Assembly: GCA_024655865.1 (NCBI GenBank)
Contig: JANLFM010000002.1
Coordinates: 74,405 to 138,404 of the forward strand
Source: Caldisericota bacterium
Lineage (GTDB): Bacteria; Caldisericota; JANLFM01
DNA: 64,000 bases
Reading direction: 5' to 3'
Shown here piece after piece: positions 8,301 to 14,068 of the stretch. The position numbers and the translations under genes are program-made. Below the pieces are notes generated by a model. That model was not told the origin of the DNA. It did no database searches and saw only the letters and a program-made list of their open reading frames with translations. Positions within the stretch are counted from its first letter, which is position 1. Every line of letters starts with the position of its first letter.

Positions 8301-8374
8301 TGGGGAGTCGTCTAGTGGTAGGACAGCAGACTCTGGATCTGCGAGCGGTGGTTCGAGTCCATCCTCCCCAGCCA
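8301..8374 (+). tRNA. tRNA-Gln (anticodon CUG)
   Basis: Hand-folded cloverleaf: acceptor TGGGGAG/CTCCCCA, D-stem GTCT/GGAC, anticodon stem GCAGA/TCTGC with loop CTCTGGA (U33, anticodon CTG), T-loop TTCGAGT, discriminator G, encoded CCA. Confidence 0.85.
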
Positions 8375-8551: not shown

Positions 8552-8989
8552 ATGGAAAAGGCAAGAGTGCTTTTCATCTGCACCCACAACTCGGCCCGTT
8601 CTCAGATGGCTGAAGGTTATCTGAAAAAGCGCTACGGGGAATACTTCGAAGCTTATAGCGCAGGAACCGAGCCCACGAGCGTCCATCCTCTGGCTGTGCG
8701 CGTTATGAGGGAAATGGGAATTGATATTTCAGAGCACAGGTCAAAAAGTGTAAGGGAGTTCCTGAACCACCACTTTGACCTGGTAATCACAGTTTGTGAT
8801 AGCGCCAGGGAGGCTTGCCCCTTCTTTCCTGGAGCGAAAAAATACATTCATGCCGGCTTTCCTGACCCTGCAATTATAGAGGGAACGGAAGAGGAAAAGC
8901 TCGCCGCTTTCAGGGAAGTCCGAGATCAAATTATCTCCTGGATCGAAAGGAACCTGAAGCTTTTCATCCCCCGAAGAACTCCCGGCTGA
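8552..8989 (+). CDS. arsC: ArsC-family arsenate reductase / low-molecular-weight protein-tyrosine phosphatase (thioredoxin-coupled type)
   Basis: CTHNSARSQMAEG P-loop (CX5R) plus downstream VCDSAREACP cysteine pair as in Bacillus-type ArsC. Confidence 0.75.
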   Translation: MEKARVLFICTHNSARSQMAEGYLKKRYGEYFEAYSAGTEPTSVHPLAVRVMREMGIDISEHRSKSVREFLNHHFDLVITVCDSAREACPFFPGAKKYIHAGFPDPAIIEGTEEEKLAAFREVRDQIISWIERNLKLFIPRRTPG

Positions 8990-9635
8990 AGCCGCGCAGG
9001 GCAGAAAGGGAAGTCGAGAGCACGCAAACCAATACCTGGAGGAGAACTCCGCCAAAGAACCCCAGGTAGCGCCAGGTGGAAACCAACCCAAGGAGTTCCA
9101 GCTCCCTGAAGTAGAAATACACAAGTATGGAGGCCGGGGCAAGAAAGGCATAGAGAAATAGCGGAAAGAACCATATTTTTCTATTTTTTAGAACAACAGG
9201 GAAAAATGAGAGACCAACTATTAAAGTTAAGGCCAAAAAATCAAAAGTCAGAGTGTCGAAGAAGTACTCTTGAGCAAAATCCCAGCCGAAAATCCAGTAG
9301 GCCAAGGGAGCCGTGAGAAATTGCAAGAGCAGGAAGAGAATTCCCCAGATGGTATTGAGCCCGCGAAATGTGGAAATAATGATCTGCGCTATGCGCATGG
9401 CACCAAAAATAACGGCCAGGAAAGCGCCAGGAAGAGCCCAGAAAATCAGATAAAGCGAGAAATAGAGGGTATCTCCCAGCCAGAAATGGCCAGCCCAAGT
9501 TATCGCCAGAAAAGGCTCAAAGCAAATCCAGGCAAGAAAAATCCATTTAAGAAAGAAGGGTCCGGAGACGAGCTCCTCCTCAAAGGTTCTCGTTTCTCTC
9601 TCGTACTCCTCAAGGTCCCTATTTTTGCCCATCAA
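8964..9635 (-). CDS. Polytopic membrane protein, hypothetical
   Basis: 223-aa ORF with several hydrophobic helices. Same orientation as, and downstream of, the trpB2/ParB-like pair. Confidence 0.45.
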   Translation of the reverse strand: MMGKNRDLEEYERETRTFEEELVSGPFFLKWIFLAWICFEPFLAITWAGHFWLGDTLYFSLYLIFWALPGAFLAVIFGAMRIAQIIISTFRGLNTIWGILFLLLQFLTAPLAYWIFGWDFAQEYFFDTLTFDFLALTLIVGLSFFPVVLKNRKIWFFPLFLYAFLAPASILVYFYFRELELLGLVSTWRYLGFFGGVLLQVLVCVLSTSLSALRGFSREFFGG

Positions 9636-9709
9636 GTAATTTTATAATTTCTCTTCTGCGGAAGAGAAAGAAGCAATAGATAGGCTCCTTTATCCCCCCT
9701 TTCTTTACC

Positions 9710-10186
9710 TTACTGCCAAAGGTTTTCGCTTAAAGGGCTCATTTTTAGAAAATCCAGGGGGATAGGGCACCTGGGTATTTGCCAGGGCCAGATGTGCCTG
9801 GAGGTTTTGCTGGGGTAGAGTTCTCCCCTTAGCCCTCTGGAGATCACACTCTCTTTATTTACGGCGATTTCCGGACGCCAGCTCGCTACTTTTATGGAGC
9901 AATCGCCGTAGTCCACGAGGTAAGCGGGGATGAGCTCACAGCCCAGCTCCTTCAGCGCGCAAACCCTGTGGTGCCCGTCAAGGATCACTAAGGAAGCTCT
10001 ATCCACAACCACCGGGTAGAACAGGAAGCCATCTCTCTTGATTTCCTGAGCTAGTTCCCTGAGGTGATTTTCATCCACCATCTCGTGATGCTTGAGACAG
10101 GGAAAATATACCAGAGCCAGGGCTCCGGGGAACTGTCCCTTATCCCATAAGCTTTTCGTGATGGAGAATGAAAGCCCTTTTTCCAT
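9710..10186 (-). CDS. ParB/Srx-fold (DGHHR motif) domain protein
   Basis: VILDGHHRVCAL motif characteristic of the ParB N-terminal/sulfiredoxin superfamily. Begins 10 nt after the trpB2 stop. Confidence 0.5.
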   Translation of the reverse strand: MEKGLSFSITKSLWDKGQFPGALALVYFPCLKHHEMVDENHLRELAQEIKRDGFLFYPVVVDRASLVILDGHHRVCALKELGCELIPAYLVDYGDCSIKVASWRPEIAVNKESVISRGLRGELYPSKTSRHIWPWQIPRCPIPLDFLKMSPLSENLWQ

Positions 10187-10196
10187 TTTCCTCTCC

Positions 10197-11597
10197 TTAT
10201 GAACCCTCTTGAGCTGATGAAAAGGGAAGGTCTTTCAGGGAGCGCTCGATTTCCTCCCGGGGTTCATAATCCTCGAGCGATCCTTTAAGGTGCGCCTCAT
10301 AGGCTCCCAAATCGAGGTAGCCATGACCGCTCAGATTAAAAAGGATGGACAGGGACTTATTTTCTCTCTTTGCTTCAAGGGCCACATCTATCGCCACCTT
10401 GACAGCATGCGCCGATTCCGGAGCAGGCAAAAAGCCCTCTGTTCTGGAAAACAGGACGGCGGCCTGGAACACCTCCTTTTGTCCCACTGCTTGAGCCTCG
10501 ATGAGCCCCTCTTTGTAGAGCCCGCTGATAATCGGGGACATCCCGTGATAGCGCAAGCCGCCGGCATGAATGGAAGGTGGAACAAAGCCGTGCCCAAGCG
10601 TGAACATCTTCAAGGCAGGGACTATCCCTGCTGAATCACCGTAATCGTAGGCGTAAAGACCTCGCGTTAACGATGGGCAGGCTGTGGGCTCCACGGCGAT
10701 GATCCTTGGTTTCTGCGGGGCTTTCTTCCCAGATTTTTTTGCCTGAAGGAAGGAACGGAGAATTGGGAAAACCAGGCCCGCGAAGTTACTCCCTCCACCG
10801 ACACAACCAATCACCACATCCGGTTTGTCGCCAGCTTGCTCTAACTGGAGCAGAACTTCCTCCCCAATTATCGTTTGGTGCAGCAACACGTGATTCAGGA
10901 CGCTTCCCAGGGAATATTTGGTGAAGGGATTGGAAACAGCATCCTCCACAGCTTCGCTGATGGCAATTCCCAGACTGCCCGGGTGTTCCGGGTTTGAAGC
11001 AAGAATCCCCCTTCCGGTTTCAGTCCTGGAACTGGGGCTGGGAAGGACCTCTGACCCATAAACTTCCATCAGAGTTCTGCGGTAGGGCTTTTGAGTGTAA
11101 CTGATCCTTACCATGTATACCGTGCACTCCAGATCGAAGAACGCGCAGGCCATGGAAAGCGCTGTCCCCCACTGCCCTGCTCCCGTCTCCGTGGTTAGCC
11201 TTTTCACTCCTTCCTTTCTGTTGTAATAAGCCTGGGCCACAGCTGTATTTCCCTTGTGGCTTCCTACCGGACTGAACCCTTCAAACTTGTAATAAATCCT
11301 TGCCGGGGTCTCCAGCTTCTCCTCGAGTCGTCTCGCCCGGATTAGGGGCGTAGGCCTCCACAGGCGGTAAATGTCCAGGACCTCTCCCGGGACGTCAATG
11401 AACTCCTCACTGGCTACCTCCTGACGAATTACGGCCTCCGGGAAGATGGGAAGGAGGTCCTCTGGTGAAATCGGCTCAAGGGTCTGAGGATGAAGGGGTG
11501 GAGGTACTTCAAATGGAAGGTCGTGCAAAATGTTGTACCACCGGGTCACCATCTCCCGTTTTTCTAAAAAAAGATCAACTTTCTTGTTCATGACCAT
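10197..11597 (-). CDS. trpB2: TrpB2-type tryptophan synthase beta-like PLP enzyme (true start MVMNKK; ORF-track start at 11702 is leader read-through)
   Basis: ~450 aa PLP-dependent TrpB-like sequence with long N-terminal region typical of TrpB2. AAAGGAGA RBS precedes ATG at 11597. Upstream ORF portion overlaps a T-box leader and terminator. Confidence 0.8.
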
Positions 11598-11605
11598 TCT
11601 CCTTT

Positions 11606-11900
11606 CTTTTTTGAAATAAAAAAGAGCCGCCCTCTTATGGAGGGCGGCTCTTTTAAACCGCGGTGCCACCTCAATTGGATCCTTAAACGGAATCCCACTC
11701 ATTTCCGGATACGGAGACCAAAAGTCTCTATATATCCTCCCCTTTTAACGGCGGGTTCCCGTCAGAGCCTACTTGTTTGCTTTCGGCCCTGCAACTCCTG
11801 GGTCCATTCGGTCGCTCCTTGCAATATCGGGCTTACACTATCCCCGACTCGCTGAATTGCCGGTGCTGCGCTTACTAGTCCCAATCATCGCCTTTAAAAA
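11606..11900 (-). promoter_or_regulatory. T-box riboswitch leader (probably tRNA-Trp-sensing) with intrinsic terminator; TTGACA-18-ATAATT promoter at 11913-11942
   Basis: Minus strand carries a GA/K-turn motif (GCGATGA...AGTAAGCG) and the T-box sequence AATTGAGGTGGCACCGCGG (UGGC bulge; 11649-11669). A perfect 11-bp stem GAGCCGCCCTC/GAGGGCGGCTC is followed by TTTTTT (11606-11641). A GAA-TGG-A candidate specifier sits in a purine-rich loop. Confidence 0.75.
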
Positions 11901-11960
11901 ATTTATTGGGGTAATTATTGCTCATTCTGGCAATTTGTCAAGAAAATTGAGAAAATTTTT

Positions 11961-12563
11961 TTACACTTTGCTGAGCCTGGCTTTCACAAAAAATATTTCC
12001 TCATTCTCTATCTTCAGCTCTACTTCCAGTCCTTCCTCATCCATCCACCTGGAAATCTCCTCCGAAGAGGGCAAAATGTCAGAGGAGACAGCTTCAATTG
12101 ATCTGTGGCGCTCATTGATTTTCTCCCTTCCCTCAGAGTGGCAGATGATGATCCGGCCTTCATCTTTTAACATCCGAGCCATCTTTCTTAAGGCTCCTCT
12201 CTGATCCACGAAGTGGGGAAAGGAGGAATAACAGATTACTCTGTCGAAGAGCAGGGCCAAATCCAGTTCCATAATATCAGAGACCAGAAAATACACGTTG
12301 GGATAGCGCTCCCTGGGAAATTTACGGTGCGCTACAGAGACCATGCTCGGGGAAAAGTCCACTGCAAAAAGGAGCCCCTGGGAGCCGATTTTTTTCAGAA
12401 TGTAGGGGATCAAAATCCCAGTCCCACACCCACAGTCCAGGACAGCCTGCCCAGGTGCTAAGTCCCCCAAATCCAAGAGCTTTTTGATCTTTTCGGGATC
12501 ATGCTGAACTCGAGAATCCCACTCCTCAGCGAGGCTATCAAAGTACTCTCTGCGAGCGGACAA
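11961..12563 (-). CDS. Class I SAM-dependent methyltransferase
   Basis: VLDCGCGTG motif I and downstream motifs; 200 aa. Confidence 0.8.
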   Translation of the reverse strand: MSARREYFDSLAEEWDSRVQHDPEKIKKLLDLGDLAPGQAVLDCGCGTGILIPYILKKIGSQGLLFAVDFSPSMVSVAHRKFPRERYPNVYFLVSDIMELDLALLFDRVICYSSFPHFVDQRGALRKMARMLKDEGRIIICHSEGREKINERHRSIEAVSSDILPSSEEISRWMDEEGLEVELKIENEEIFFVKARLSKV

Positions 12564-13131
12564 GGCTGGGCTCCTTCAAAATTAGTTTCACCAGCAAGGG
12601 AATCAAAACAAGCTGGATAAGGATCCCGGGAAGTCCTACTACGAAGAGAGCAGAGGCCACCTGAAGGAAGTCGAAATTCTTCCCGACAACCAGAGAGATG
12701 ATCAACCAATTCAGCAAGAGGGAAACGAACCTTCCAACTATCATGGACAGTATGAGCGCTGGGTAGATGCCCAATCTGGCATTGCGGAAAAGCAGGGAAG
12801 TCAACGCCCCGTAAACTAGGAGCTCACCCATCATAGTGAAAACTGTTGGGACAGGGGGCATGGAGGTAAAAAAGAAGCTTAAAAGAGGAGAAAGTAACCC
12901 CACCAGCCCTGACAGTTCCCAGGGAAGAAAAAAACCGGCGATGAGAACCGGAAGGTGCATTGGCAAAAACACATTCCCTCCGATTTTCAAAATGTGGAAG
13001 ACCAGGGGGAAGAGAATCCCTAAAGATAGAAGAAACCCGGCTATGGAGATGTTATATATTGAGAGGACTTTCTGTGATCTCCGTTTTCGCTCTGGTAGTT
13101 TCTTCTCTAATTCCAAACCTTCGTTCTCCAT
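12538..13131 (-). CDS. Small polytopic membrane protein, possible ECF-type S component or metal permease (next to nikR)
   Basis: 197 aa, about 5-6 TM helices, FHILKIGGNVFLPMHLPV region. Family assignment uncertain. Confidence 0.4.
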   Translation of the reverse strand: MENEGLELEKKLPERKRRSQKVLSIYNISIAGFLLSLGILFPLVFHILKIGGNVFLPMHLPVLIAGFFLPWELSGLVGLLSPLLSFFFTSMPPVPTVFTMMGELLVYGALTSLLFRNARLGIYPALILSMIVGRFVSLLLNWLIISLVVGKNFDFLQVASALFVVGLPGILIQLVLIPLLVKLILKEPSLVRSQRVL

Positions 13132-13229
13132 TATTCAACCTCTTGGTGTGAAAAAATAAAAATTAGTAATAAAAAATTAGCACGGCAAGAAACAGTAAGT
13201 CAAGAAAAGGGGGAAAGAGCTTTTAAAAA

Positions 13230-13649
13230 TTAAGCCAGGTTTCTCCCGGTGGAAGCCGCAAGTAGCTTTCCGAGTTTTACCCCTTTGGTAGCGGTAATCT
13301 CATCGGCAACTTTCTGCACACGGTCCTTAGGCCCTCTGAGGACAATCGCTTCCAGGCAGTGATCCTCATCCAGGTGCACGTGCAGGGAGGAGACAACACA
13401 GCCCAGGTTACAGTGTTCAATTTCGGTAATTTTTTCCGAGAGTGCGCGCACGTGATGGTCGTAGACGATGGAAAGGACTCCTACCACCTCTCCCTGGGAT
13501 TCCCGCCACTCCTCCTCCACCAGGGAAGCCCGGATGAAATCCCTGAAAGCCTCCGAGCGGTTCCGGTACCCTTTCCTCCTCAAGAGCTCCTCGAGTTTTT
13601 CTCCCAGCTCCTCCGGTATTGAAATGCTAAACCTGATCGTTTTTCCCAT
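13230..13649 (-). CDS. nikR: Nickel-responsive regulator NikR
   Basis: N-terminal ribbon-helix-helix (IRFSISIPEEL) and C-terminal metal site HVHLDEDHCLEAIVLRG matching the NikR H-x-H...H...C signature. Confidence 0.85.
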   Translation of the reverse strand: MGKTIRFSISIPEELGEKLEELLRRKGYRNRSEAFRDFIRASLVEEEWRESQGEVVGVLSIVYDHHVRALSEKITEIEHCNLGCVVSSLHVHLDEDHCLEAIVLRGPKDRVQKVADEITATKGVKLGKLLAASTGRNLA

Positions 13650-13738: not shown

Positions 13739-14068
13739 ATGATTACGTACGAGGAATTTTTGAAGGTGGAAATGAGGGTAGGCACAATCCTTGAGGTGGA
13801 GGACTTTCCCCGAGCGCGGAAACCCTCATACAAGTTGAAGATCGACTTCGGCCCTTATGGCATTAAGGTTTCCTCGGCTCAAATTACTGATTTTTACTCA
13901 AGGGAGGAGCTTAAGGGAAAGCAGGTAATCGCCGTTACGAACTTTCCTCCCAAGAATATAGCCGGCTTCCTCTCCGAGGTTCTGGTTTTGGGAGCTGTGC
14001 TCGAGGAAGGAAAGGTAATCTTGCTGGAACTTGAAAGGCCGGCACCTAACGGGACAAGGATCCTGTAA
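13739..14068 (+). CDS. csaA: tRNA-binding domain protein (CsaA/Trbp111, EMAP-like OB fold)
   Basis: FLKVEMRVGTILEVEDFP...KLKIDFG motif pattern of CsaA/MetG C-terminal tRNA-binding domain; 109 aa. Confidence 0.75.
   Translation: MITYEEFLKVEMRVGTILEVEDFPRARKPSYKLKIDFGPYGIKVSSAQITDFYSREELKGKQVIAVTNFPPKNIAGFLSEVLVLGAVLEEGKVILLELERPAPNGTRIL

Follow-up and report, generated by a model that had tools for sequence, protein, structure and literature searches.

TrpB2-type tryptophan synthase β subunits have been puzzling for two decades. They were first regarded as stand-alone indole scavengers and were later shown to prefer O-phosphoserine, and both the source of this substrate and the reason for its use have stayed unsettled. 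The present study approaches this question through one locus in a 64,000-nt stretch of DNA from a Caldisericota bacterium (GenBank assembly GCA_024655865.1, contig JANLFM010000002.1, positions 74,405 to 138,404; hereafter the window). There, a T-box riboswitch is followed by trpB2 and by a small gene, all on the minus strand. A preliminary description of the locus had left the product of the small gene as an unexplained protein of ParB/sulfiredoxin (Srx) fold. Why should such a gene share the control of trpB2? Our analysis suggests that it encodes a short homolog of free L-serine kinases, here called mini-SerK. The locus is probably a tryptophan starvation-induced operon for indole salvage, in which serine would be converted to O-phosphoserine and O-phosphoserine to tryptophan.

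A tryptophan-specific T-box leader

In agreement with the preliminary description, the leader of trpB2 matches the T-box family of Rfam (RF00230), with 118 bits (E = 1.8e-25) against a gathering score of 93 bits and over the full model (1-219). The T-box itself is an ordinary, standard member of this family. The match lies at 11637..11897 and comprises Stem I with a kink-turn (K-turn), the specifier loop, Stem III, and the antiterminator; the GA/K-turn motif is found at the base of Stem I (GCGAUGA...GGAG). A UGG specifier had been expected, and UGG was found: in the cmscan alignment the loop reads GAA-UGG-A, with the codon at 11804..11806 and a purine after it at 11803. UGG is the sole tryptophan codon. 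The T-box sequence AAUUGAGGUGGCACCGCGG (11675-11657) holds UGGC at 11668-11665. In T-boxes, the UGGN bulge covaries with the discriminator base of the tRNA; the C that ends UGGC here thus points to G73, the typical discriminator of bacterial tRNA-Trp. No tRNA-Trp gene occurs within the window, where the only tRNA gene is that of tRNA-Gln(CUG) (8301-8374, plus strand).

The T-box sequence and antiterminator together occupy 11640..11675. In the structure line of cmscan, GAGG pairs with CCUC and GCGGU with GCCGC, leaving a 7-nt bulge, UGGCACC. The 3′ strand of the antiterminator, GCCGCCCUC, is also the 5′ strand of the terminator (GAGG-UGGCACC-GCGGU...GCCGCCCUC). The intrinsic terminator (11618..11654), identified by a terminator scan and by minimum free energy folding, has 15 pairs (11654-11620), a CAUAA loop, and a following run of six U. 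Its core is a perfect 11-bp G+C-rich helix of GAGCCGCCCUC (11650-11640) with GAGGGCGGCUC (11634-11624). The GA motif, the T-box sequence with its UGGC bulge, and the 11-bp terminator with its U tract are thus all present as first described. Promoter and terminator scans covered positions 9300-12300, and within this region the T-box terminator is the only terminator-like site of any strength.

A consensus scan of the same region found a sole promoter-like site, upstream of the leader. Its −35 hexamer, TTGACA (11936..11941), is followed after 16 nt by the −10 hexamer AATAAT (11914..11919), roughly 17 nt before the T-box match begins; alternatively, ATAATT would serve as the −10 hexamer with a 17-nt spacer. 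The −35/−10 pair has 11 of 12 consensus matches. The site had been reported before as TTGACA and ATAATT with a spacer of 18 nt; the site stands and the spacer length does not. By itself, the promoter scan is not above chance (one site found, 2.2 expected); the promoter is conserved in a Caldisericota relative (L001). Between the terminator and trpB2, a ribosome-binding site, AAGGAG (11599..11604), could be read from the sequence 7 nt before the ATG at 11591. This ATG is the real start of trpB2, and the 501-aa open reading frame at 10197-11702 is an over-extension through the leader, which explains, as had been proposed, its excessive length.

L001 is a metagenome-assembled genome (MAG) locus of Caldisericota with synteny to the window, and its leader, together with the promoter, is 88% identical to that of the window. 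Altogether, the same leader, with its UGG specifier, GGUGGCAC, and terminator, precedes trpB2-serK in 18 further loci, namely L001 and 17 loci from Bacillota and an Ignavibacteriales-labelled MAG. A search of 15 TrpB2-linked loci at the Rfam gathering threshold had matched only L001, as if the T-box were lineage-specific. This idea was discarded, as searches with an E-value threshold, used instead of the gathering score to recover related leaders, found the 17 others; blastn with the window leader also matched many related loci. These 17 loci, which lie within L002-L056, have full-length T-box matches of 42-87.5 bits (E from 1e-6 to 1e-17), under the Rfam cutoff (for example, L013:3805-4209 and L005:3936-4329). 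Seventeen of the 18 leaders carry insertions of 35-130 nt between Stem I and Stem III, which bring their scores below the gathering threshold. At that threshold, standard annotation therefore misses most T-boxes associated with mini-SerK and trpB2.

In a MAFFT alignment of 19 leaders (the window and the 18 other loci), GAAUGG stands at the specifier position in every sequence. Eighteen of the 19 also have GGUGGCA(C/U)C, after which come a G+C-rich hairpin and a stretch of U. The terminator helix is kept in 18 leaders, with compensatory changes in five pairs. In L003 (42 bits), the T-box sequence is degenerate, and the leader may be decaying. Judged from sequence and covariation, the window leader is almost certainly a tryptophan-specific, transcription-terminating T-box that controls the unit.

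Identities of the two genes

The first gene, trpB2 (10197..11591), encodes a TrpB2-type tryptophan synthase β subunit of 464 aa, identified by NCBIfam and PDB matches in line with the preliminary description. The protein exceeds the cutoffs of both NF009057 (709.5 bits, cutoff 366) and TIGR01415 (651.8 bits, cutoff 518.85). It reaches only 152 bits with the TrpB1 model TIGR00263 (cutoff 392). Its closest structures are those of Sulfolobus TrpB2 (6hul_B, 473 bits; 4qys_B, 414 bits). The lysine motif for pyridoxal 5′-phosphate (PLP), SHK (K113), the motif HAGGLRYHG, and R347 are invariant in the TrpB2 alignment. A metagenome scan with this alignment yielded 80 TrpB2 loci (L081-L160; 56-65% identity), of which 78 hold HAGGLRYHG. 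In a pairwise alignment, R347, which we take to be a phosphate-binding and substrate-discriminating residue, stands opposite the Asp of AGLDY in a genuine TrpB1, that of L028. The native substrate on which TrpB2 enzymes depend is reported to be O-phospho-L-serine (Busch et al. 2014, as cited in PMC11917138). By family membership, the window TrpB2 is predicted to be of this O-phosphoserine-dependent type, the preference itself being known from other TrpB2 enzymes.

The second gene (9710..10186) encodes mini-SerK, a 158-aa homolog of free L-serine kinases on the ParB-CTPase fold; NCBIfam, PDB, AlphaFold2/Foldseek, and gene linkage all point to this assignment. It starts at 10186, 10 nt past the trpB2 stop codon and behind GGAGAGG. 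Within the scanned region, no promoter-like site and no credible terminator lie between trpB2 and mini-SerK, in keeping with the proposal that both genes share one control. A terminator-like site inside serK (10128-10111) was disregarded, as such sites occur there at chance frequency (five found, 4.9 expected).

The best NCBIfam match of mini-SerK is SerK (65.8 bits), followed by SbnI (35.5 bits), with Noc and ParB at about 20 bits. Among PDB sequences (phmmer), the SerK entries 1vk1 (Pyrococcus furiosus) and 5x0b (Thermococcus kodakarensis) were matched at E = 1e-12 and SbnI at 6e-7, and ParB-type proteins from 0.09. A family profile built from 36 homologs gave the same order, with E = 5e-26 for SerK, 2e-13 for SbnI, and 1e-3 for Noc. 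The former ParB/Srx label was too shallow: the fold is derived from the ParB-CTPase fold, and SerK and SbnI are far closer.

The family aligns with SerK in two pieces, residues 7-104 with SerK 15-116 and residues 97-134 with SerK 204-241. E35 of mini-SerK aligns with SerK E30, the position of the A or Q substitutions in the product-complex structures 5x0e and 5x0j. D70-R74 (DGHHR) aligns with SerK D69-R73, and K127-H131 (KTSRH) with K221-H225. H34, E35, D70-R74, T128, and H131 are invariant across the 36 family members. AlphaFold2 predicts a single domain (predicted local distance difference test score 88.5, predicted template modelling (TM) score 0.81). When this model was compared with the PDB by Foldseek, SerK had a TM score of 0.73 with a root-mean-square deviation of 2.3-2.9 Å, SbnI 0.60-0.69, ParB/Noc at most 0.43, and Srx at most 0.40. 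Thus, by sequence and predicted fold, the nearest characterised relatives are SerK of Thermococcus and SbnI of Staphylococcus. The name mini-SerK reflects that, by alignment, the catalytic Glu, DGHHR, and KT(S/T)RH of SerK are kept, while about 87 central residues are absent and the score lies far below the curated SerK cutoff. The family would define a catalytic core of about 130 residues.

Gene neighbourhoods and a putative O-phosphoserine route

The preliminary description had called for a co-occurrence analysis of the two genes. We scanned one genome per species and obtained 80 mini-SerK loci, of which 69 are of the mini type after L070-L079 (Asgard, SerK-length) and L080 (spurious) were set aside. 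trpB2 is directly adjacent, on the same strand, in 34 of these 69 loci, and the TrpB2 proteins are 49-83% identical to that of the window. The linked loci come from Bacillota, Caldisericota, Ignavibacteriales, bacteria of the candidate phyla radiation (CPR), MAGs labelled ‘Gammaproteobacteria’, Micrarchaeota, Diapherotrites, and Bathyarchaeia. Among bacterial mini-type loci, 30 of 34 are linked to trpB2, and two of the four exceptions are at a contig edge. The order is trpB2-serK in Bacillota, Caldisericota, Ignavibacteriales, Magasanikbacteria, Microgenomates, and Micrarchaeota, and serK-trpB2 in Gottesmanbacteria, ‘Gammaproteobacteria’ MAGs, and Diapherotrites. The two genes overlap by 4 nt in nine loci.

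Six loci of CPR bacteria and ‘Gammaproteobacteria’ MAGs have the order serK-trpB2-trpS, and trpS scored 264-267 bits with TIGR00233 in the two that were scored. With this cluster, reduced genomes seem to have a compact way of making Trp-tRNA from indole. These loci are L044, L055, L057 (5989-9288), L059, L062, and L066, from Gottesmanbacteria, Microgenomates, and genomes labelled ‘Gammaproteobacteria’. Some of their tryptophanyl-tRNA synthetases (TrpRS) carry a C-terminal tRNA-binding domain.

In Sulfolobales, Thermofilaceae, Pyrodictiaceae, Fervidicoccaceae, and Bathyarchaeia, the neighbour of mini-SerK is instead a 390-aa PLP enzyme that, among proteins of known structure, comes closest to CysO of Aeropyrum pernix (PDB 1wkv, 345 bits), an O-phosphoserine sulfhydrylase. 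According to Makino et al. (PMC5120207), this CysO recognises O-phosphoserine. This linkage suggests a route from serine via O-phosphoserine to cysteine outside Thermococcales. The CysO-linked loci are L007 (5977-7935), L016, L023, L031, L039, and L045; a cysteine desulfurase (NifS/IscS) gene is nearby in some Thermofilaceae and Bathyarchaeia loci. In a crude neighbour-joining tree, the window mini-SerK falls in a bacterial TrpB2-linked clade, and the CysO-linked genes form a separate archaeal clade. Two natural fusions, among the top hits of a profile search, join mini-SerK to a cysteine synthase (P0065 and P0119, the latter with 395.7 bits to cysKM). Two further proteins (P0062, P0064) have two mini-SerK stretches each. 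The Asgard homologs that were set aside (e.g., L071:5064-7292) are about 245 aa long and have CbiQ-like and ThyX genes as context, not PLP enzymes.

How might such a unit work? From a sigma-70-type promoter, a leader of about 316 nt would be transcribed and fold as a transcription-attenuating T-box, in which the UGG of Stem I would read the anticodon of tRNA-Trp. When this tRNA is uncharged, its free 3′ end (G73-C-C-A) would pair with the UGGC bulge and lock the antiterminator. When it is charged, the competing terminator of 11-15 bp and six U would form, and transcription would stop before trpB2. Readthrough would express trpB2 and mini-SerK, and possibly also a lineage-specific membrane protein. 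mini-SerK, presumably reduced to the catalytic ParB-fold core that SerK of archaea and SbnI of staphylococci also contain, would convert L-serine to O-phospho-L-serine, and TrpB2 would join O-phosphoserine and indole to give tryptophan and phosphate. We infer this feeding of TrpB2 by the mini-SerK product; through its closeness to SerK and SbnI, mini-SerK readily fits into a TrpB2 reaction that depends on O-phosphoserine. The main argument for its function is that adjacency and fusion tie the family to two PLP enzyme families (TrpB2 and the CysO/CysK/M types), in parallel with SbnI-SbnA. A serine kinase role for mini-SerK is therefore likely.

Several observations weigh against this reading. 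The match of mini-SerK to the curated SerK model NF053625 stays below its cutoff of 380 bits, about 87 central SerK residues (about 117-203) are missing, and the short family is known from sequences alone. O-phosphoserine is normally supplied by the SerA/SerC pathway. Furthermore, a SerK-like archaeal protein bound cytidine triphosphate (CTP) rather than ATP (PMC12704722), which bears on the phosphate donor. At the exceptional locus L028, from a Moraniibacteriota MAG (L028:2749-6381), mini-SerK follows trpC-trpB1-trpA; the partner there is TrpB1, which uses serine, although the context is still tryptophan-linked. Many mini-type loci, for example in Thermoplasmata and some Bathyarchaeia, have no O-phosphoserine-using neighbour. 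Finally, mini-SerK occurs within 3 kb of trpB2 in none of the 80 metagenomic TrpB2 loci. mini-SerK as a general partner of TrpB2 is thereby ruled out, and the kinase would be an accessory component in some lineages. Most organisms presumably obtain their O-phosphoserine through SerA/SerC, which would readily explain TrpB2 genes without a kinase partner. In the same 80 loci, trpS lies immediately upstream of trpB2 in four (L091, L094, L098, L114), and trpA or trpC is nearby in a few.

The missing third of SerK could also mean that mini-SerK is not a kinase. It might be a nucleotide-binding regulatory or scaffolding subunit of TrpB2 (of CysO in archaea), comparable to TrpA on TrpB1 or to a CTP/ATP switch. 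The ParB-CTPase fold often serves as a switch or scaffold, not as an enzyme (PMC12704722), and the 4-nt overlaps and the fusions to PLP enzymes would suit a physical complex as well as a pathway. However, the invariant positions of the family correspond to the active site of SerK (HE, with the catalytic Glu30, DGHHR, and KTxRH), and a pure scaffold needs no catalytic base. Moreover, the partners are two unrelated consumers of O-phosphoserine, which suggests that they have the substrate in common and not a protein surface. We therefore consider a purely regulatory subunit unlikely. An identity to SerK of only about 16-30% leaves room for a SerK-type kinase or phosphotransferase with another substrate or direction (threonine, homoserine, or O-phosphoserine plus nucleoside diphosphate to serine plus nucleoside triphosphate), next to a TrpB2 whose product is not tryptophan. 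Fusions of mini-SerK to a sugar-1-phosphate nucleotidyltransferase (P0126) and to a hexapeptide-repeat transferase of the γ-carbonic-anhydrase/acetyltransferase type (P0099) would fit this, as would the unrelated neighbours of many family members. Nevertheless, the UGG T-box in 19 leaders and trpS after trpB2 in six loci tie the module to tryptophan supply, and the characterised relatives, SerK and SbnI, all phosphorylate free L-serine (PMC5120207; PDB names). Another substrate or direction is accordingly quite improbable.

Automated annotation labels mini-SerK proteins as ‘ParB N-terminal domain-containing’, and a DNA-binding protein or nuclease of ParB type, or a sulfiredoxin-like repair enzyme, might stand beside trpB2 by chance. 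A weak Pfam ParB_N match and distant Foldseek matches to ParB, Noc, and Srx would agree with this. However, the scores with PF02195 (20.6 bits, cutoff 26.3) and TIGR00180 (20.2 bits, cutoff 58.45) are both below cutoff, there is no helix-turn-helix and no dimerisation domain, and the neighbours are trpB2 and a membrane protein. The catalytic Cys motif of Srx is FGGCHR; mini-SerK has LDGHHR in its place and thus lacks this Cys. Furthermore, the linkage to trpB2 is conserved over phyla and gene orders, which argues that the adjacency is not due to chance. The partition protein, sulfiredoxin, and nuclease readings were all rejected, and a chance neighbour of this kind is extremely improbable.

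Apart from these alternatives, the serine kinase reading may be carried further: mini-SerK and TrpB2 might form a physical two-enzyme complex, in which the partner activates and hands over the serine-derived substrate, not indole. The 4-nt overlaps and the cysteine synthase fusions are compatible with such a complex and do not prove it. The mini-SerK of 130 aa would then be a portable module for TrpB2, CysO, and CysK/M in bacteria, CPR, DPANN, and Crenarchaeota, and in reduced genomes serK-trpB2-trpS would by itself lead from indole to Trp-tRNA. We regard this extension as rather doubtful.

With the kinase role taken as likely, a serine kinase that is induced by tryptophan starvation, co-transcribed, and often translationally coupled would offer a concrete, testable answer to the source of O-phosphoserine in the lineages that carry it. 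Serine would be phosphorylated so that scarce indole is trapped irreversibly. Free serine kinases have been described as a few from hyperthermophilic archaea and SbnI. An exhaustive profile search found 3,530 cluster representatives at E ≤ 1e-3, 1,742 at 1e-10, and 238 at 1e-30. At E ≤ 1e-10, the family would therefore widen to about 1,700 clusters, including Bacillota, CPR, and DPANN.

Surroundings of the unit and known systems

A possible third gene of the operon encodes a 222-aa multi-pass membrane protein (8964..9632, minus strand), to which the synteny with L001 points. The protein is 58% identical to the product of the L001 gene that starts 10 nt after serK, and 100% identical to a protein of a ‘Caldiserica bacterium’ MAG at NCBI. 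It has only five database homologs, of which the named ones are annotated as Caldiserica, and no Pfam or NCBIfam family was matched. The 75-nt gap between serK and this gene contains no convincing terminator and no significant structure (z = −0.64). The gene may thus be a third, lineage-specific member of the T-box-controlled unit, for example a transporter. A convergent gene on the plus strand (8552-8989), for a low-molecular-weight phosphotyrosine phosphatase/ArsC-type protein, overlaps its 3′ end by 26 nt.

Upstream of the unit, also on the minus strand (11961-13649), are genes for NikR (13230-13649), the S component of an energy-coupling factor (ECF) transporter (12538-13131), and an S-adenosylmethionine (SAM)-dependent methyltransferase (11961-12563). 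The latter two overlap by 26 nt. Between the end of the methyltransferase gene, at 11961, and the T-box promoter, no terminator was found. On the plus strand (13739-14068) lies a gene for a 109-aa stand-alone tRNA-binding-domain protein (CsaA/Trbp111-like), which weakly matches the C-terminal tRNA-binding extension of the L057 TrpRS. Other RNA elements in related loci are a molybdenum cofactor (Moco) riboswitch (L012:1183-1304), a group II intron domain (L003:4362-4529), and five clustered tRNA genes that closely follow serK (L010:4302-4709).

TrpB2, the T-box, and free serine kinases are each known, and we did not find the pairing of trpB2 with mini-SerK described. Full-text searches returned no paper with both TrpB2 and ‘serine kinase’, or with ‘free serine kinase’ and ‘tryptophan synthase’; these searches covered few subscription journals, and an earlier description is possible. 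A 2025 survey of the ParB-CTPase fold makes no mention of tryptophan or PLP enzymes and used Pfam gathering cutoffs, which mini-SerK misses (PMC12704722). Outside trp operons, no conserved neighbourhood of trpB2 was seen by Merkl (2007; PMC1854888), and according to Makino (2016), bacteria have no clear homologs of SerK (PMC5120207).

Among known systems, SerK (T. kodakarensis TK0378, PDB 5x0b; P. furiosus, 1vk1) shares with mini-SerK the ParB-CTPase-derived fold, the H-E pair (Glu30), DGHHR, and KT(T/S)RH. SerK uses ADP and feeds an O-phosphoserine-dependent PLP enzyme, CysK (PMC5120207). In contrast to SerK, which has about 242-244 aa and CysK as partner, mini-SerK of the window has 158 aa, is bacterial, and has TrpB2 as partner. 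CysO of A. pernix (1wkv), the O-phosphoserine-consuming PLP partner in other branches of the family, makes cysteine and does not occur in the window. The SbnI-SbnA pair of Staphylococcus aureus (staphyloferrin B) is similar in that the gene of a ParB-fold serine kinase stands beside that of a fold-type-II PLP enzyme consuming O-phosphoserine. However, SbnI (about 254 aa) has a C-terminal regulatory, DNA-binding part, and the diaminopropionate made through the pair goes into a siderophore rather than into translation. In NCBIfam, SbnI is listed as both a transcriptional regulator and an O-phospho-L-serine synthase, whereas the unit of the window is under a T-box instead.

The TrpB2 enzymes of known structure (PDB 4qys, 6hul) share SHK and AGGLRYHG with that of the window. 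Their genes have been described as stand-alone or in trp operons, whereas trpB2 of the window stands beside a gene whose product may supply the co-substrate of TrpB2. Similarly, the tryptophan T-boxes of Firmicutes, which precede trpS and the trp operon, have the same K-turn, UGG followed by a purine, UGGN bulge, and competition between terminator and antiterminator. In contrast to them, the T-box of the window belongs to a Caldisericota host and would regulate trpB2 together with a homolog of serine kinases.

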